From Alphaproteobacteria bacterium (lineage in GTDB: Bacteria; Pseudomonadota; Alphaproteobacteria; SHVZ01), in the NCBI GenBank assembly GCA_044223515.1, contig JBGALV010000012.1:368-64367 (forward strand): a DNA stretch of 64,000 bases. Reading direction: 5' to 3'. Positions 24,799 through 34,930 of this stretch are shown piece by piece (the first letter of the stretch is position 1; the number at the start of each line of letters is the position of its first letter). The notes beneath the pieces were generated by a model. It was not told the origin of the DNA. It saw nothing but the letters and a program-made list of their open reading frames with translations, and did not search any database. Position numbers and translations under genes: made by a program.

Positions 24799-24946
24799 GG
24801 GGGAGTGCTCCGAGTAGCGATTTGTTCGGACAATCTAGCATGACCTTTCTCGGCAAAGGTGGGGAGGTCGACAAAGCACCACTACTTTGAGCTGCATTAA
24901 GTCAGCGTGCTCCGCTAGGATTGAGCTACTTTCGAGAGGAGCGCAC

Positions 24947-25831
24947 GTGCTTTCGATTCGACTCAAGTCCCTCGTGCAAAATCCGCCATGGAAAGCATGG
25001 GGAAGAGAGGCTCTCGTTTCTTTAGGTACACTGTGGCTTGTTCTTGAATTATCGAGCTGGGCTCTTCCTAATATTTACGATGACATACTTAAAATATACG
25101 CCTTAACTGGGGCATCTATTATTTCTTTTATTTGGGCCACTTATCGGTCTATTCCTCCGGTTCAATATAAAAAGAGATTCAAATCGCGAAGCACGACTAT
25201 TGAATTGCGCGTCGACGATCTAATTGAAAATGCGAAATCTCGCCACATTGGCATCTTAAGCAGCAACTACTTCGATTCGTGCACTAATACGGCAATCTCG
25301 GCCCACAGCCTTAAGGGAAAACTCATCACATCTTACTATTCCGGCCTTATGGCTTCCTTTGATAGCGCTGTGGACCAGTCGTTAAACAAGAACGGAATTG
25401 TAGGCGTGGAAAATCCAGGCAAGCAGCGAGGCGTAAACAGACTGCGTAGGTATGAGATTGGAACTGTTGCTGCCGTCCCGGTTGGATCGTTCAAAGCCAT
25501 TCTGGTTGTCGGTGCTGAGTTCGAAGATTCATCCTCATTCACCAGCACGAATGCGATGGGCTTTTGGGCCTCGCTCCTAGCGCTTTGGAGAGGCGCCCAG
25601 CTAGAGGGACACCGACAGCCGATAGCTGTTCCAATTTGGGGTGCAAATTTGGGGAATGCGCCCGGGAGTCGCTTGGTGAAATTTCAGACGCTCTTGTGCT
25701 CGTTTGCTGTCGCATCGGCGGCAGCCAATCAACCTCCCACGACCGACCTCCACATCGTGGTCTGGAAAGGGGACTATGATCCCGAGGAATTTAGAACAAT
25801 GGCAGAAGTGCTATCCGAGTTCGAAATGTAG
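24947..25831 (+). CDS. Horizontally acquired 2-TM membrane protein with cytoplasmic Rossmann-like domain (macro/SLOG-like, tentative)
   Basis: About 45% GC versus ~68% around it. GAGGAG RBS 6 nt before GTG 24947 (alternative ATG 24887). Two N-terminal TM helices, and a C-terminal IAVPIWGANLGNAP motif resembling the macro-domain IAFPAISTGIYG loop. Confidence 0.7.
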   Translation: MLSIRLKSLVQNPPWKAWGREALVSLGTLWLVLELSSWALPNIYDDILKIYALTGASIISFIWATYRSIPPVQYKKRFKSRSTTIELRVDDLIENAKSRHIGILSSNYFDSCTNTAISAHSLKGKLITSYYSGLMASFDSAVDQSLNKNGIVGVENPGKQRGVNRLRRYEIGTVAAVPVGSFKAILVVGAEFEDSSSFTSTNAMGFWASLLALWRGAQLEGHRQPIAVPIWGANLGNAPGSRLVKFQTLLCSFAVASAAANQPPTTDLHIVVWKGDYDPEEFRTMAEVLSEFEM

Positions 25832-26461: not shown

Positions 26462-26632
26462 CTCGCTACGCTAAGGCTGTCGTGCGCAAGCGCGCACTTG
26501 CGCCTTAGCTAGGCGCCCGCGCTCGCGGGCGGAATGCGAAAGTAAGATCGGCGGAGCGAAGCGGAGACGGCTTACGGCAGCATTGCGCCCTTAAGCGAGC
26601 CTCGGGAGTTCCGAGCGTAGCGAGGTCAATGC
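26462..26632. repeat. Repeat module M3 (second copy) plus partial inverted unit
   Basis: GCTCGCTACGCTAAGG..GTGCGCAAGCGCGCAC..TTAGCTAGGCGCCCGCGCTCG closely matches 20862-20928. Confidence 0.7.
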
Positions 26633-26832
26633 TCGACAGCGTCCCGTTCCTCGACCCTGACCACGCGAAGGTGCTCCACGGTCTCCGCCAGGTGTTCATA
26701 AGCCGTGGCCAAGCTGGCGAAGCTCGACCGCGCGAGCGCGCTGGTGTGCGCGGCGTCGGCCTGGGCGCGGAGGGAGGCCGCCATCCGGCGGTATTGGGCG
26801 ACGCGTTCCCTTGGCTGCGCGAGGTCGACCAT
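26626..26832 (-). CDS. Hypothetical small protein
   Basis: 68-aa ORF that partly overlaps the repeat. Weak support. Confidence 0.2.
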   Translation of the reverse strand: MVDLAQPRERVAQYRRMAASLRAQADAAHTSALARSSFASLATAYEHLAETVEHLRVVRVEERDAVEH

Positions 26833-27455: not shown

Positions 27456-27680
27456 TCACGCCGGGCGATGGAAGCGCAGCCCCGGGTCCTCGTGGGCCTC
27501 GATGCGCGGCGAGCCGGCCTTCTCCGTCCGCAGGCGTTCGAGGAAGCGCACGGCCTCCTCTTCCGTCATCGGCGCCGAGCGCCGTTCCTGGCAGCCCGTG
27601 CTCCACAGCACCGCGAAGCGCCGGCGGGCGACCAGGACGGACTTCTTGGTGCCGGCCGGATTGGGATTCTTCATCGTCAT
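27456..27680 (-). CDS. Hypothetical small basic protein (module gene B, copy 1)
   Basis: 74 aa with RRRFAVLW..RRSAPMTEEEA..RLRTEKA. Paralog at 29760..29987. 3-nt gap after gene A1. Confidence 0.55.
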   Translation of the reverse strand: MTMKNPNPAGTKKSVLVARRRFAVLWSTGCQERRSAPMTEEEAVRFLERLRTEKAGSPRIEAHEDPGLRFHRPA

Positions 27681-27683
27681 GGG

Positions 27684-28097
27684 TCAGCTCTCTCCGATGA
27701 TCCGCCGGATCACCTTGGTCTCGATGGTGGTGGGCGAAAGCTCGACGCCGGTCGGCGCGACCTCGAACACGCCGCGGAACTCGACCAGGTTGCGGCCGGT
27801 CTCCCCCTTCTCGCGCTGACGCGCGACCGCGACGACGAAGGGCTGCGGCGTGGCAATCAGCTTCGCCCTCTCCTCGGAATCCTTCACCGCGATCGCGAGG
27901 TATGCATCGCGCGGCGCCGCCTTCTTCCGGCTGGCCTTCGCCGGCAGCGCATCGGGCTCCTTCGGAGGCGGCACGCTGCGCCAGGTGTCCGCCCAGGCGA
28001 CGCGCACGCTGTCGATGAGGCGGCCATTCAGGCGCCGTTCCGCCGACTGCGTGCGGCTCACGAACTTCAGGCCGTATCCATCGACAAGGCTCGACAT
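27684..28097 (-). CDS. Hypothetical protein (module gene A, copy 1)
   Basis: 137 aa starting MSSLVDGYGLKFVSRTQSAERRL, with GAGGTAG RBS. About 55% identical to the paralog at 29990..30391. Confidence 0.6.
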   Translation of the reverse strand: MSSLVDGYGLKFVSRTQSAERRLNGRLIDSVRVAWADTWRSVPPPKEPDALPAKASRKKAAPRDAYLAIAVKDSEERAKLIATPQPFVVAVARQREKGETGRNLVEFRGVFEVAPTGVELSPTTIETKVIRRIIGES

Positions 28098-28195
28098 CGG
28101 CTACCTCACGGGCGAAAGCCGCGGGCCGGCGGGCGGCCGCGGACGGAAAGGCTGGGACGGGGATGGCCGCGACGCGGGCGCCCCGGCCGGGTTCG

Positions 28196-28522
28196 TCAGA
28201 CCGAGAGCTTGCTCGAGCAGAGCCCCACGATCTCGTAGTCGACGTCGCCGTTGGCGCGGGTCGCGGCGAACTTGGCCGCGAGGTCGCGCCGCGCGTTGCT
28301 GTCGAGCTTCGCGGACTCCGGGTTCTCCGCCCTCGCCTTCACCTCGCAGAGCTGGGCCTGCACGGCGACGATGCCGTCGCGCATCTCCCCGGCGGCGGTC
28401 CGGGTGGTCACCGTCACGCCGAAATAGCTGAGGGCGATCGGGCCGATGACGAGGCCGGCGATGAACGCGGGGATCATCCCCTTCCGCGGCTTCCATTTCG
28501 GCTGGGTGCTGGCGGCTTCCAT
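28196..28522 (-). CDS. Hypothetical N-terminally anchored small protein
   Basis: AAGGAG RBS and one TM (MIPAFIAGLVIGPIALSYFGV). Upstream TATAAT box. Confidence 0.5.
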   Translation of the reverse strand: MEAASTQPKWKPRKGMIPAFIAGLVIGPIALSYFGVTVTTRTAAGEMRDGIVAVQAQLCEVKARAENPESAKLDSNARRDLAAKFAATRANGDVDYEIVGLCSSKLSV

Positions 28523-28639
28523 CGGGGTCTCCTTGCGGCAGCGTGGGGTAAGGCTCTGATGGAATGACGCTTACCGGCGTGCCCTCGGAGGCAGCCGGAC
28601 GATTTCGTCGTCCCAGATTCTCTAAATATTTTTGGCTGA

Positions 28640-28700
28640 GTCGCCGGACTCCCGCTGTATTCGCGGGAGTGTCCGGTTTATTTAAGAAGGTAATTATACT
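28640..28700 (-). promoter_or_regulatory. Promoter -10 (TATAAT) and 5' leader hairpin for gene 28196..28522
   Basis: TATAAT on minus strand (28693-28698). Leader has a 13-bp stem CCGGACACTCCCGC..GCGGGAGTCCGG (28647-28680). Confidence 0.35.
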
Positions 28701-29037
28701 TTGCCGCCTGCATCTAAACCATCGGCAAATCATGAGACGCCCAGGCTAGACGAAAATAAAAATACCGAATTAATTGAATATTTCCTGACCGAAGGCGGCG
28801 GACATGCTAGAAGAGATCCGCCGGTCGGCGCCGCGCGGGCGTAGACAGGATTCCATTCCCGAGGTTGCGGCGGAGGGGGAGCGATAGCCGAAAGGCTGGC
28901 GCCCGTTATCTCCGCTGCGGCACCGGCGGCGGGCGAAAGCCCACGCCGGCGTGTGGAGCCCGGAGCGGCCGAAAGGCCCTTCGGGCTCCACCCATTTCCG
29001 GGATGGGCGCCGATCGGCGAAGGCGGACGCCGCGTCC

Positions 29038-29715
29038 CTAGAAACGAAGCGTGGCGCCGAGCGTGATGCGGTTGGAGCGCGCCTGGGTCACGTTGCGTCC
29101 CAGGATGAGGTCGAGATCGAGGCGGCCGTCGAGCAGGGTCGGGCGGATGCCGACCTGCATGCCGGGGCGGGCACCGCGGTCGCGCCCGAAGACCTCGGCG
29201 ATCGCGGTGAGATCCTCCCGGATCTGCACGTCGGTGCCGGCGCCGAAGGTCGTTGTGTCGCGCGGCACCGTGCGGTCGCGTTCCCAGCCGAGGTTGAGAT
29301 TGATGCGGGCCTCCGACACCGGCTGCCAGCTCACCGGGATCTGCGCCGCCAGCGTGTCCGCCTTGCGGGTGCGGGTCGCAATGCCGGCGCCGGCGGCGAT
29401 GCCGACACCGATGCCGTGGCGTTCCACCGGCAGCAGGGTCGCCTTGGCCTTCGGGCTGACGGACGTCGCCCAGGCGCCATCGGCACGGGAGCGATCGAGC
29501 GCGGCCCCAACCTCGACGAAGGAGACCACGCAGGCCGGTGCGGCGACGAAGCTCCACTCGCGATCCCGGGCCGCCGCGGCCCAGGTCTCGAGCTTGCATT
29601 CGCCGGCCGCGCCGATCTCGGAATCATCGACGACATAGGCACCGCCGGCGGCGAAGGCCGGAGGTGCCGAGAGCAGCGCGCCAATCAGAAGAGAGAAGAA
29701 CCGGAGAGCCACCAA
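29038..29715 (-). CDS. Outer-membrane beta-barrel protein
   Basis: Signal peptide, alternating amphipathic strands, C-terminal ..GATLRF. TTG/GTG start. Confidence 0.7.
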   Translation of the reverse strand: MVALRFFSLLIGALLSAPPAFAAGGAYVVDDSEIGAAGECKLETWAAAARDREWSFVAAPACVVSFVEVGAALDRSRADGAWATSVSPKAKATLLPVERHGIGVGIAAGAGIATRTRKADTLAAQIPVSWQPVSEARINLNLGWERDRTVPRDTTTFGAGTDVQIREDLTAIAEVFGRDRGARPGMQVGIRPTLLDGRLDLDLILGRNVTQARSNRITLGATLRF

Positions 29716-29759
29716 CCCCGTCTAGCATGCGGGGCGAGGCGGCGCGACACACGGACGCG

Positions 29760-29987
29760 CTAGCGTCCGGTGCCGCGAAGGACGGGGCCTTCCTCGATCT
29801 CGATCCGGACGTTCTGGGCCTTCTCCACGCGAAGCCGCGCGGCGAAGTTCTCGGATTCCTGATCGGTCATCGGCGCGGAGCGCCGGTCCTGGTGGTTCGC
29901 CGTCCACATCACCACGAAGCGGCGGCGGCTCGCCGGCGTCGCCGCCCTGACCACGCCGCCGCTCTTGTCGGCCTTCGTCGCTGTCAT
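29760..29987 (-). CDS. Hypothetical small basic protein (module gene B, copy 2)
   Basis: 75 aa with RRRFVVMW..RRSAPMTDQES..RLRVEKA. 2-nt gap after gene A2. Confidence 0.55.
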   Translation of the reverse strand: MTATKADKSGGVVRAATPASRRRFVVMWTANHQDRRSAPMTDQESENFAARLRVEKAQNVRIEIEEGPVLRGTGR

Positions 29988-29989
29988 GC

Positions 29990-30391
29990 TCAGGCCTCGC
30001 TCGCGGTGACGCGGCGGAGCACCCGCGTTTCCAGGCTCGTCGGCGACGGGTCGACGCCGGTCGGGCTCACCTCGAACACGCCGCGGAAATCGGCGAGGCT
30101 GCCGCGCTTGCCTTCCGAGCGCGTCTCGGCGAGCGCGACGACGAACGGCGCCGGCTTCGCCTTCTGCGCGGCCATCGCCGCCGCATCGGGGAACGAGATC
30201 TCGACGAACACCTCGCGCGCCGTCTTGCGGGCCGCCTTGCCCGCGGCCATGGCGTCGTCGGGCACCGGTGCGCTCCGCCAGCTCGCGACCCACGCGACCG
30301 GGATCGTGTCGATCAATCGACCATGCAGACGACGCTCCGCGCTCTGCGTGCGGCTCAGGAATTTCAGATCGAAACCGTCGACGAGACTCAC
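29990..30391 (-). CDS. Hypothetical protein (module gene A, copy 2)
   Basis: GTG start with GGAGGTGG RBS. Starts VSLVDGFDLKFLSRTQSAERRL and ends ..FRGVFEVSPTGV. Confidence 0.6.
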   Translation of the reverse strand: MSLVDGFDLKFLSRTQSAERRLHGRLIDTIPVAWVASWRSAPVPDDAMAAGKAARKTAREVFVEISFPDAAAMAAQKAKPAPFVVALAETRSEGKRGSLADFRGVFEVSPTGVDPSPTSLETRVLRRVTASEA

Positions 30392-30634
30392 GCGACCACC
30401 TCCGGAACAAAAGCGAAGGCACGCCCACCCGGGAACGGCGTGCGGCAGCGACAACAGAACGCAAGCACGCACCCCGTTCCGGGCCCGGCTCGCTCTGCAC
30501 TCGATTTCTCGCTGATACGTCGGCCGCGGCTATTGCGGCGGCCGAACTCGACCAGGAATCCCACCCTACGTGGGCGCGGTGCGAAAGACCATTCCTAAAT
30601 GGGTATGGAGGCAGCGTCTTTCCAGGCCGCGCGC

Positions 30635-31327
30635 CTACAGCAGCGTCATCACCGCCGCGTAGTGGGTCGCCGCGCCGACAAGCACGAACACGTGCCACAC
30701 CGCGGTCGAGAACTTGAGCCTCTCCCACAGGTGGAACACCACGCCGGTCGTGTACACGACGCCGCCGGCCGCGATCAGCATCAGCGTCTCCTCGGGCACC
30801 ACCTTCGACAGCGGATCCACGGCGACGACGAAGAGCCAGCTGATCGCGAGGTAGAGCGGGATCCACAGGCGCTCTGGCCACGACCAGTTGCAGAGCTTGG
30901 CGACGATGCCGAGCGACGCCAGCGACCACACCAGCGCGGTCAGCCCCCAGCTCCAGTATCCGGTGAGTCCCAGCGCCGTGAACGGCGTGTAGGTGCCGGC
31001 GATCATCGCGAAGATCGCGGCCTGGTCGATGCGGCGGAGCAGCGGCCGGTGCCGGCAGCGCGGACGCATGTTGTAGACGGCGGAGCAGGTCAGCATCACG
31101 ACCGCGCAGGCGACGTAGATCGCGATCGGCCAGAAAGCGTTCAGCTCTCCTCGCGATGACGCGTCGAGAAGGAGAAGCGCGGCCGCGATCGGCGCAAGTA
31201 CCAGGCCAAGCACATGAACAGCAGCATCGGTGAGTAGCTCGGCTCGTGTCGGTTCTCGGGAACAGAACTGAATGGTGCTCGTGGTCACGGTTAGGCGGTC
31301 CCGGTGCAGGTACTGATGGACCAACAC
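30635..31327 (-). CDS. Hemolysin-III / PAQR-family membrane protein
   Basis: Seven TM segments with a conserved His-rich pattern (HVLGLVLAP..HVFVLVGAATHY). Confidence 0.8.
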   Translation of the reverse strand: MLVHQYLHRDRLTVTTSTIQFCSREPTRAELLTDAAVHVLGLVLAPIAAALLLLDASSRGELNAFWPIAIYVACAVVMLTCSAVYNMRPRCRHRPLLRRIDQAAIFAMIAGTYTPFTALGLTGYWSWGLTALVWSLASLGIVAKLCNWSWPERLWIPLYLAISWLFVVAVDPLSKVVPEETLMLIAAGGVVYTTGVVFHLWERLKFSTAVWHVFVLVGAATHYAAVMTLL

Positions 31328-31420: not shown

Positions 31421-31878
31421 CGTATCCCCTCCCTCGCGTCGTACGCGGGGGAGGGCTAGGGTGGGGGCTCTAAATGGCGAGAATTCCGGAACGCATCACC
31501 CGTCGCGCCCGCGCGCTCCGCTCGGACATGACCGAGGCCGAGACTCGCCTCTGGCATCGCTTGCGGAATCGTCAGTTTGATGGCTGGCGCTTCCGTCGCC
31601 AGCATCCGATCGACCCTTATGTGGCGGACTTCGCTTGTCCCGACGCGATGCTCGTGGTCGAAGTCGACGGTGGGCAGCATGCGGACTCCGCGCGCGACGC
31701 GGAGCGCGATGCGAGTCTCGTGACGCGCGGATGGAAAGTGCTGAGATTCTGGAACAACGACGTGCTCGCGAATATCGACGGCGTGCTCGCGACGATCGCG
31801 GCGACGCTGGCGCCGTTACGGAAGGCCGAAGAGCCCCCACCCTGACCCTCCCCCGCGTACGACGCGAGGGAGGGAACT
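31421..31878. mobile_element. MITE-like cassette: DUF559 gene bounded by ~45-bp inverted REP-like terminal repeats
   Basis: Left repeat CCCCTCCCTCGCGTCGTACGCGGGGGAGGGCTAGGGTGGGGGCTC. Right repeat is its near-perfect reverse complement GAGCCCCCACCCTGACCCTCCCCCGCGTACGACGCGAGGGAGGG. The ORF stop codon lies inside the right repeat. Confidence 0.5.
31474..31845 (+). CDS. DUF559 endonuclease-domain protein (Vsr/restriction-endonuclease-like fold)
   Basis: Full DUF559 pattern: TEAETRLWHRLRNRQF.GWRFRRQHPI..YVADFAC....LVVEVDGGQH....D..RD..L...GWKVLRFWNNDV. Confidence 0.85.
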   Translation: MARIPERITRRARALRSDMTEAETRLWHRLRNRQFDGWRFRRQHPIDPYVADFACPDAMLVVEVDGGQHADSARDAERDASLVTRGWKVLRFWNNDVLANIDGVLATIAATLAPLRKAEEPPP

Positions 31879-34567: not shown

Positions 34568-34930
34568 TCAGGTGGGGCCGAGCGTGGTCGCGATCACGCT
34601 CACGACTCCATCCGTGTTCGACAAAACGTCGCTGTTCCAAAACCGCAACACACGCCACCCCGCTTCCTGCATGCTTCGATCGCGCCGCGCATCAGTTCGA
34701 GACCCGCGTGCTGTCCCCCATCCACCTCGACGACGAGCTTGGCTTCGATACAGGCGAAGTCGACAACGTATTCGTCGATCGGATGCTGACGCCGGAATCT
34801 CCATCCGCCGATCTGCTTTCGATTGAGCCGATTCCACAGCCGACGTTCCGAGTCCGTCGACTCCATCCGCAGTCGCCGCGCCCGACGTGTCGTGGTCAGA
34901 GGTGTCTTCGCCATCGGGCCAAGCCCCCAC
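34568..34930 (-). pseudogene. DUF559 endonuclease-domain gene, frameshifted second copy, flanked by REP-like units (34473-34511 and 34921-34966)
   Basis: N-terminal two thirds in frame 34600..34914 (TDSERRLWNRLNRKQIGGWRFRRQHPIDEYVVDFAC..VVEVDGGQHAG). C-terminal GWRVLRFWNSDVL in frame 34568..34930. Confidence 0.7.

Follow-up and report, generated by a model that had tools for sequence, protein, structure and literature searches.

The stretch analyzed here, a 64,000-nucleotide (nt) window from contig JBGALV010000012.1 of an Alphaproteobacteria bacterium, carries two copies of a pair of small genes on the minus strand. We refer to the two genes as A and B, and to a small membrane-protein gene discussed with them as TM108; these are working names, and coordinates are positions in the window. 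The first pair consists of A1 (27684–28097; 137 amino acids, isoelectric point (pI) 10.05) and B1 (27456–27680; 74 amino acids, pI 10.8). The second consists of A2 (29990–30391; 133 amino acids, pI 9.68), a paralogue of A1, and B2 (29760–29987; 75 amino acids, pI 11.1). A2 begins with a GTG codon, which was picked by aligning homologues. Each B gene is coupled to its A gene. As read from the sequence, the stop codon of A1 is separated from the start codon of B1 by 3 nt (TGA-ccc-ATG), and that of A2 from the start of B2 by 2 nt (TGA-gc-ATG). Shine–Dalgarno sequences are present 5′ of A1 (GAGG) and of A2 (GGAGG).

A1 and A2 share 56% identity across 132 amino acids (BLASTP, E = 1e-44), and B1 and B2 share 56% identity across a core of 52 residues (E = 3e-19). 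At the DNA level, the two copies are 72–75% identical at an offset of ∼2300 nt. The duplicated A–B pairs are real and far beyond chance. An earlier note on this DNA, drawn up from the sequence alone, had described two coupled pairs with 2–3-nt gaps, a Shine–Dalgarno sequence before each A gene, and ∼55% identity between the A copies. All of these features are present, and the A and B motifs quoted there are conserved among homologues.

At 68–71% GC, long spurious open reading frames (ORFs) are frequent here in all six frames, and A and B might be taken for non-coding ORFs that arose by chance. Conservation refutes this explanation, to which we assign next to no probability. The paralogues match significantly, homologues with conserved motifs form 26 to 113 clusters, the ratio of nonsynonymous to synonymous substitution rates (dN/dS) lies below 1 among orthologues, the structure of A is modeled with confidence, and the genes have Shine–Dalgarno sequences and coupled starts.

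For the closest orthologues, the Nei–Gojobori (NG86) dN/dS was 0.22 for A2, 0.29 for B2, 0.41 for A1, 0.50 for B1, and 0.36 for TM108, values that are approximate given the 70% GC and the level of divergence. On the basis of this range of 0.22–0.50, A, B, and TM108 appear to be under purifying but relaxed selection. Among the B paralogues dN/dS is fairly high (0.7–1.1).

The B proteins share a core of ∼44 amino acids behind a variable N terminus, RR(F/Y)xVxW...(R/H)SA(P/Q)M(T/S)xxE..F..RL...(E/D)(K/S)...R(I/V), the layout of which we read as a putative strand–helix–strand. Across homologues, the core residues of B are invariant and those of A nearly so. The twin-arginine translocation (Tat) pathway was considered for B and rejected. 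A Tat substrate combines the twin arginines with a hydrophobic h-region of 12–20 residues and a cleavage site; in B, RRRFVVMW gives way to the polar TANHQDRRS after just ∼7 hydrophobic positions. The structure model of A1 has a mean predicted local distance difference test (pLDDT) score of 76.6 and exhibits a β-rich core with a disordered insert at residues ∼44–61.

TM108 and the leaders of the two units

The A1–B1 pair is preceded by TM108 (28196–28522, minus strand; 108 amino acids), the first gene of a TM108–A1–B1 unit. The protein comprises a basic N-terminal tail (KWKPRKG), a single transmembrane (TM) helix, and a C-terminal domain of ∼70 residues with two cysteines that are kept in all paralogues. 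According to the positive-inside rule, TM108 would be a bitopic protein with its N terminus inside and its C terminus outside, where the two cysteines may form a periplasmic disulfide. Orthologues of TM108 lie immediately 5′ of A at the loci L001, L004, L007, L029, and L031 (L-numbers denote loci of relatives). TM108 itself thus belongs to the recurring unit, a point that the earlier note, which listed a small TM protein among the neighbors, had overlooked.

The 515-bp spacer 5′ of TM108 contains an AT-rich tract (∼28690–28800) with a −10-like element, GTATAAT (28693–28699). Approximately 17 nt downstream of this element lies a hairpin (28644–28676, minus strand; ΔG −22.5 kcal/mol, z −6.5). 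The leader of A2 is laid out in the same way, with a −10-like GTAGGGT (30563–30569) and, again ∼17 nt downstream, the hairpin TCGGCCGC-N10-GCGGCCGA (30520–30545, minus strand; ΔG −21.3 kcal/mol, z −3.7). An equivalent hairpin is found in 11 leaders of the type I and type II units of the clade described below, with loops of 4–16 nt; the stem sequence of the hairpin in the TM108 leader of the window is entirely unlike the others. RNAalifold returned a conserved stem with nearly no covariation (one of seven pairs compensatory), and a search of Rfam at E ≤ 1 detected no known RNA element in the leaders. Two sub-threshold matches to CRISPR-DR models of Rfam, both inside B genes, were dismissed as noise.

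The hairpins could be stem-loops in the 5′ part of the mRNA or palindromes in the DNA. As each unit possesses its own promoter-like region and its own stable leader hairpin, the two are probably independent transcription units, and the duplication seems to have taken in the regulatory region. A promoter of the EcfG general-stress regulon (GGAAC-N16-17-CGTT) 5′ of A2 was considered and discarded. The only match close by (30458–30480) has a spacer of 14 nt and is not conserved in L011, and the window holds two EcfG matches where 1.6 are expected by chance.

A gene array at one chromosomal site

Relatives of the window genes are rare. Homologues of A1 form 26 clusters among 5.8 billion proteins, and nine loci with an A gene of the window type were recovered when 185,579 species genomes were scanned with a pattern. 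All nine belong to alphaproteobacterial metagenome-assembled genomes (Rhodospirillaceae, Alphaproteobacteria, or ‘Rhizobium’ bins), several of which derive from lake metagenomes, judging from the isolate names. B was found at four loci in 241 million metagenome records, all from the same clade and each with A and/or a TM gene adjoining; a single-sequence search with B returned nothing beyond B itself.

When mapped by tblastn, the loci share a common chromosomal site with the order CN-hydrolase, hlyIII, [array], RidA and/or GST, thiolase, flavodoxin-like gene, acetyltransferase, and TerC. The array is built from three types of unit. Type I consists of leader–A–B straight after hlyIII (A2–B2 in the window, L001, L010, L011, L012, and L028). 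Type II consists of leader–TM108–A–B (TM108–A1–B1 in the window, L001, L004, L007, L029, and L031). Type III consists of a σ70-like promoter followed by TM111–B70–p88 (L001, L004, L005, and L012), and related B–p88 and B–p99 pairs occur in L031 and L007. A genome holds one to three units; L031 has three B genes.

Within the A–B clade, every A gene is followed by B, with a gap of 2 or 3 nt or an overlap of 4 nt, and the claim of the earlier note that A and B form a conserved partner pair holds throughout this clade. The neighbor-joining trees of A and B are congruent. A1 and B1 cluster with the type II copies of L001, and A2 and B2 with the type I copies of L001, L011, and L012. From this congruence, the duplication took in A and B together and preceded the divergence of these lineages, and both copies have been retained.

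The earlier note also missed a sister clade in which A occurs alone, a type of unit with B but no A, and the wider A family on phages, on islands, and in defense neighborhoods. In the sister clade (L014–L018; 45–49% identity), A has no B, and in L017 it is flanked by genes for an aminotransferase and a DUF6481 protein. The TM111–B–p88 units carry B without A. Orphan arginine-rich small ORFs (p88 and p99) often lie 3′ of B and sometimes overlap with it (L004 7808–8283, L007 6435–6984, and L031 3022–4046). Since different small ORFs follow the B genes, B seems to pair with several small proteins. ORFs of the p88/p99 type are absent from the window.

Taken together, the region in the window appears to belong to an array of small orphan genes that is specific to one lineage, evolves fast, and is fixed at a single site in the chromosomes of a freshwater clade of Alphaproteobacteria. 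A 68-residue helical ORF, p68 (26626–26832, minus strand), lies between the GST and RidA genes of the window and is 63% identical to an ORF of L001 (1309–1515) that is located inside the array there; it is an uncertain candidate for membership in the system.

A further gene of the window (24887–25831, plus strand) encodes a 314-residue protein for which two TM helices are predicted and which contains a Macro domain of the ThsA type (Pfam ThsA_Macro, 4e-23; PADLOC ThsA2, 1.6e-28). The gene occupies a stretch of 51% GC in a contig of ∼68% GC and lies between GST and thiolase, in the exact slot of the TM111–B70–p88 unit of relatives. No TIR/ThsB gene adjoins it, for which reason it looks like an orphan ThsA of a Thoeris system that was acquired horizontally and replaced part of the array.

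The two units of the window are separated by a gene for a 225-residue protein (29038–29715, minus strand) with a signal peptide and the C-terminal sequence ...LRF, and the A2–B2 pair is adjoined by hlyIII (30635–31327). Of the neighbors named in the earlier note, the hemolysin-III gene (Pfam, 2.4e-27) and the small TM protein stand. The 225-residue protein has no Pfam match, so that its label as an outer-membrane protein (OMP) is an assignment by inference, and we call it OMP-like. The OMP-like gene is found in L012 and L028 and is missing from L001 and L004, and we regard it as a variable neighbor outside the core unit.

Together with the duplication and the coupling, these neighbors had led the earlier note to suggest a conserved regulator/partner pair, possibly binding nucleic acid, which may be read as a regulator of envelope functions. 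In such a scheme, a transcriptional regulator and its partner would control hlyIII, the OMP-like gene, and the small TM protein. A and B are basic, membrane-protein genes adjoin them in the window, and the conserved GC-rich palindromic hairpins in all unit leaders could serve as operators. However, no helix–turn–helix, ribbon–helix–helix, AbrB, or other regulator domain was found in A or B. hlyIII and the OMP-like gene behave as syntenic or variable neighbors, the latter being missing from several relatives that keep A–B, and the A gene of L017 has no envelope genes beside it. The arms of the hairpins are spaced 4 to 16 nt apart, and therefore an RNA or DNA hairpin fits better than an operator for a dimeric protein. 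The proposal of an envelope regulator is thus not supported, and we consider it improbable.

The wider A family

In an exhaustive search with profiles, the A family grew to 113 clusters at 50% identity. Most members are ∼120 residues long, and their median pI is 9.45 (118 sequences). They share the pattern xHxVDGFxLKFTxRxSWKAE..G..ID.PVTW ... PFVVALAxAKD ... F.EF.GVFEV..TG..LS..SIETKVLRRV. In a second subfamily, the C-terminal ETK is replaced by LxCxV, and hence there is no catalytic-looking motif common to the family. Only one glycine and one tryptophan are invariant throughout the family. The aromatic residues Trp-36, Phe-71, and Phe-95 are conserved family-wide, and Trp-18 is lost in the window subfamily.

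None of the six proteins A1, A2, B1, B2, TM108, and the OMP-like protein gave a credible match in Pfam-A, NCBIfam, PHROGs, or PADLOC; the library matches were at most at noise level (E ≥ 0.05, far below the cut-offs). TM108 did hit a homing-endonuclease model of PADLOC (E = 0.0017, 15 bits), which covered a fragment and is not credible. The family profiles of A and B matched nothing significant among the sequences of the PDB. The view that A and B belong to no known family thus stands, in that Pfam, NCBIfam, and PDB sequence searches assign neither of them to a well-known one. Likewise, p68, p88, p99, and p161, ORFs that travel with the array, received no family assignment.

We modeled P0023 (P-numbers denote members of the A family), a short A protein, from an alignment of 38 sequences. 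The model has a pLDDT of 93.4 and a predicted template-modeling score of 0.85 and comprises one helix and nine strands, some of which form a long hairpin at the C terminus. It predicts with confidence that A is an autonomous domain. Foldseek searches with this model returned nothing at E < 0.001 in the PDB and nothing significant in BFVD. The best PDB match was a chain of SPARDA (E = 0.026, TM-score 0.32); other weak matches were to the PUA-like domain of RsmE, AbaSI, EcoRV, DpnI, and flavin-reductase split barrels (TM-score ≤ 0.42), and also to the SRA domain of SUVH9. An assignment of A as a PD-(D/E)xK nuclease, as the weak SPARDA, EcoRV, and DpnI matches might imply, was rejected because A has no conserved catalytic motif. 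Weak matches of the A1 model to phage tail-tube proteins disappeared with the model of higher confidence, and a resemblance to these was therefore discarded. At the sensitivity of these searches, the A, B, and TM108 families lie outside every family and fold tested, which does not by itself demonstrate a new kind of system.

Two distant members are fused to nuclease parts. P0054 consists of A, a segment resembling the head of ScoMcrA, and an McrA-type HNH nuclease (Pfam HNH, 1.4e-5; PADLOC type IV mREase, 5.9e-6; EcoKMcrA HNH, 2.6e-4). P0078 consists of A, a middle region, and a C-terminal PD-(D/E)xK-like domain with a D...ExK-like motif, for which the match to PDDEXK_9 of Pfam is weak and below threshold (E = 0.0034).

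In the contexts retrieved, distant A genes lie mainly on mobile elements and close to defense genes. In Rhizobium herbae, A lies on an island with an integrase, AlpA, GmrSD, and transposases. Others belong to a prophage with DnaA_C, DUF1376, and TerL, to a P2-like prophage with gpD, gpU, tail X, and an integrase, and to an element with an integrase, HipA, and a terminase. One region contains Abi_2, PLDc_2, DUF499, SNF2 helicase, and FtsH-like/DUF6634 genes, and another A gene has a helicase–DUF559/MTES_1575 gene and a DUF4145 gene close by. One context is rich in IS110 and one is neutral, and the copy on a restriction–modification (R-M) island of a Devosia plasmid is a frameshifted pseudogene.

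Three of the A genes on mobile elements are followed by a gene for a protein of ∼77 residues, which we term B′ (L021 8347–8574, L033 7367–7606, and L035 500–733). The A and B′ genes overlap or are 3 nt apart. B′ has the pattern KRPxDVIGNAV..EEEDE..GRRGGKARAEKMTxxxRSEIAKKAAKxRW and belongs to no family of Pfam or NCBIfam; its sole PHROG match is phrog_2384, of unknown function (E = 6e-5). In P0087 and P0100, the basic C-terminal part of B′ forms a C-terminal extension of A, and one of the two also contains the N-terminal part. A homology of B with B′, as the similar patches ‘R.SA.MT’ and ‘ARAEKMT’ might suggest, was discarded at an hhalign probability of 0.1%. Since the two are not detectably homologous, the arrangement of A with a coupled small basic protein recurs with different partners.

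Given these contexts, A and B could be domesticated or decaying cargo (morons) of phages or islands. They would persist by drift or hitch-hiking, their function for the host would be minor or conditional, and the duplication would be non-adaptive. The residence of the wider family on prophages and islands, the plasmid-borne pseudogene, and the dN/dS of the B paralogues are in line with this explanation. Yet reading frames, start signals, and the A–B coupling are intact in all copies at ∼15 loci, the dN/dS of the closest orthologues is 0.2–0.5, and the core residues are retained. The duplication is also older than the split between the lineages of the window and L001, and both copies were kept. 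We therefore regard decaying cargo as a poor candidate. There is a likeness to the accessory pairs of temperate phages and islands nonetheless, as distant A genes and their ∼77-residue partners are located in prophages between the structural module and the integrase/regulatory module, or adjoin the integrase and AlpA genes of an island. In contrast, the copies in the window reside on the chromosome between housekeeping genes and are inherited vertically, and their B has no detectable homology to the phage-borne partner.

Possible functions of A, B, and TM108

The explanation that we favor, tentatively and with low confidence, is that A is a nucleic acid-binding module and B its stoichiometric partner. 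A would be a free-standing copy of an undescribed basic, β-rich domain that binds nucleic acid, most likely DNA. B, a putative small basic strand–helix–strand protein translated in a coupled fashion right after A, would complete or modulate the complex of A with nucleic acid, and TM108 may provide a membrane-anchored third component in one type of unit. Binding of nucleic acid is indirectly supported by the basic charge of the proteins (pI 9.7–11.1 for A and B in the window; family median as given above), by the joining of A to two unrelated nuclease domains in architectures resembling restriction enzymes, by the repeated pairing or fusion of A with short, strongly basic partners, and by the location of A genes amid those for integrases, restriction, and phage accessory functions. 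Translational coupling, strict adjacency within the clade, and co-duplication argue for B as the partner of A, so that the two may form a complex. TM108 is tied to the system in that it recurs beside A–B and beside B alone. Any role in the conflict with mobile elements or in regulation would be equally conjectural.

Several observations weigh against a nucleic acid-binding A with B as its partner. No DNA- or RNA-binding domain was recognized in the sequence or fold searches. A without B in L014–L018 and B without A in the TM111–B–p88 units indicate that the partnership is not obligatory. The window subfamily lacks the tryptophan of the otherwise conserved S-W-K-A motif, and its function may therefore differ from that of the members borne by mobile elements. 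Fusions to nucleases are found in 2 of the 113 clusters, one of them with a PD-(D/E)xK assignment below the Pfam threshold. The association with mobile elements and defense genes comprises ∼10 contexts without a background statistic, and no relatives were recovered in pattern scans of IMG/VR or from INPHARED, the latter by tblastn with one phage-borne member as the query.

A close parallel to a DNA-binding A is found in type IV restriction enzymes, which consist of a reader and a nuclease (McrA, ScoMcrA, and the SRA and EVE enzymes); reader domains are typically combined with unrelated nuclease domains. Like the readers of this group (the N-terminal domain of EcoKMcrA, the SBD and SRA domains of ScoMcrA, and the PUA-like EVE, ASCH, and SRA domains), A is a small (∼120 residues), autonomous, and β-rich domain, and it is placed N-terminal to the nuclease parts in P0054 and P0078. 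However, A shows no significant match to these readers in sequence or fold (best TM-scores 0.32–0.42, all E > 0.02), and the window subfamily has lost one conserved tryptophan of the family. Moreover, A1 and A2 carry no nuclease domain, unlike the endonucleases themselves; the HNH domain occurs only in the distant P0054.

The main rival explanation is a defense, abortive-infection, or toxin–antitoxin-like module, in which A, B, and TM108 would detect incoming DNA or phage or keep it out, and the array would occupy a chromosomal hot spot for genes of this kind. The copy number and composition of the array differ among close genomes (A–B, TM108–A–B, and TM111–B–p88), the low-GC ThsA-type gene (TM helices and Macro domain) takes the slot of the third unit in the window, 150 nt past hlyIII there is a DUF559 endonuclease-like gene, and selection is relaxed. 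Distant A genes, in turn, lie near GmrSD, Abi_2, PLDc_2, and R-M genes and in accessory regions of prophages. However, A, B, and TM108 have no PADLOC match, and no recognizable enzymatic or pore-forming effector is encoded. The array is inherited vertically at a fixed site between housekeeping genes that are 75–95% identical, with no tRNA in the window and no integrase among the ORFs read around the array. The pairs do resemble type II toxin–antitoxin systems in being two-gene operons of small proteins that are translationally coupled, in having relatives on mobile elements, and in the presence of paralogues in one genome. They differ in that both partners are basic, where a toxin is usually combined with an acidic antitoxin, in that A often occurs alone and B also with other small proteins, and in the lack of a match to any toxin or antitoxin family and of a PDB sequence match for the profile of B. 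On balance, we consider a defense module unlikely.

A bolder version of the nucleic acid-binding model seems to us quite unlikely. In it, A would represent a previously unrecognized nucleic acid-reader fold that was recruited by restriction-type nucleases and by accessory loci of phages and islands; in one freshwater clade of Alphaproteobacteria, it would have become fixed in the chromosome and expanded along with B as a dedicated partner and with TM108, the three making up a new kind of system for sensing or excluding foreign DNA. If A were indeed a new fold for nucleic acid recognition, it would provide an additional reader module for modification-dependent restriction enzymes and for accessory genes of phages and islands, and a handle on 113 clusters of presently unannotatable proteins. 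If A, B, and TM108 were merely lineage-specific accessory proteins, a clear account of three orphan families and of the logic of their operons would remain. The array illustrates how, in freshwater Alphaproteobacteria that are uncultured, small genes of the mobile-element type may become fixed at a single site of the chromosome and be duplicated and recombined there; in the window genome, this site also took in a Thoeris-type ThsA gene.

Two minor observations concern DUF families. DUF2188 (PF09954), a family of small proteins not known to have a function, is of a length similar to B, with a W..V...R.S..x.T..EA..A pattern suggestive of a strand–helix; a membership of B in this family is not supported, as B1 and B2 have no Pfam match even at E ≤ 1. 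The DUF559 gene past hlyIII (31474–31845, plus strand) encodes a Vsr-like endonuclease domain; another DUF559 copy, which looks broken, is found 3 kb beyond it (∼34574–34863, minus strand).

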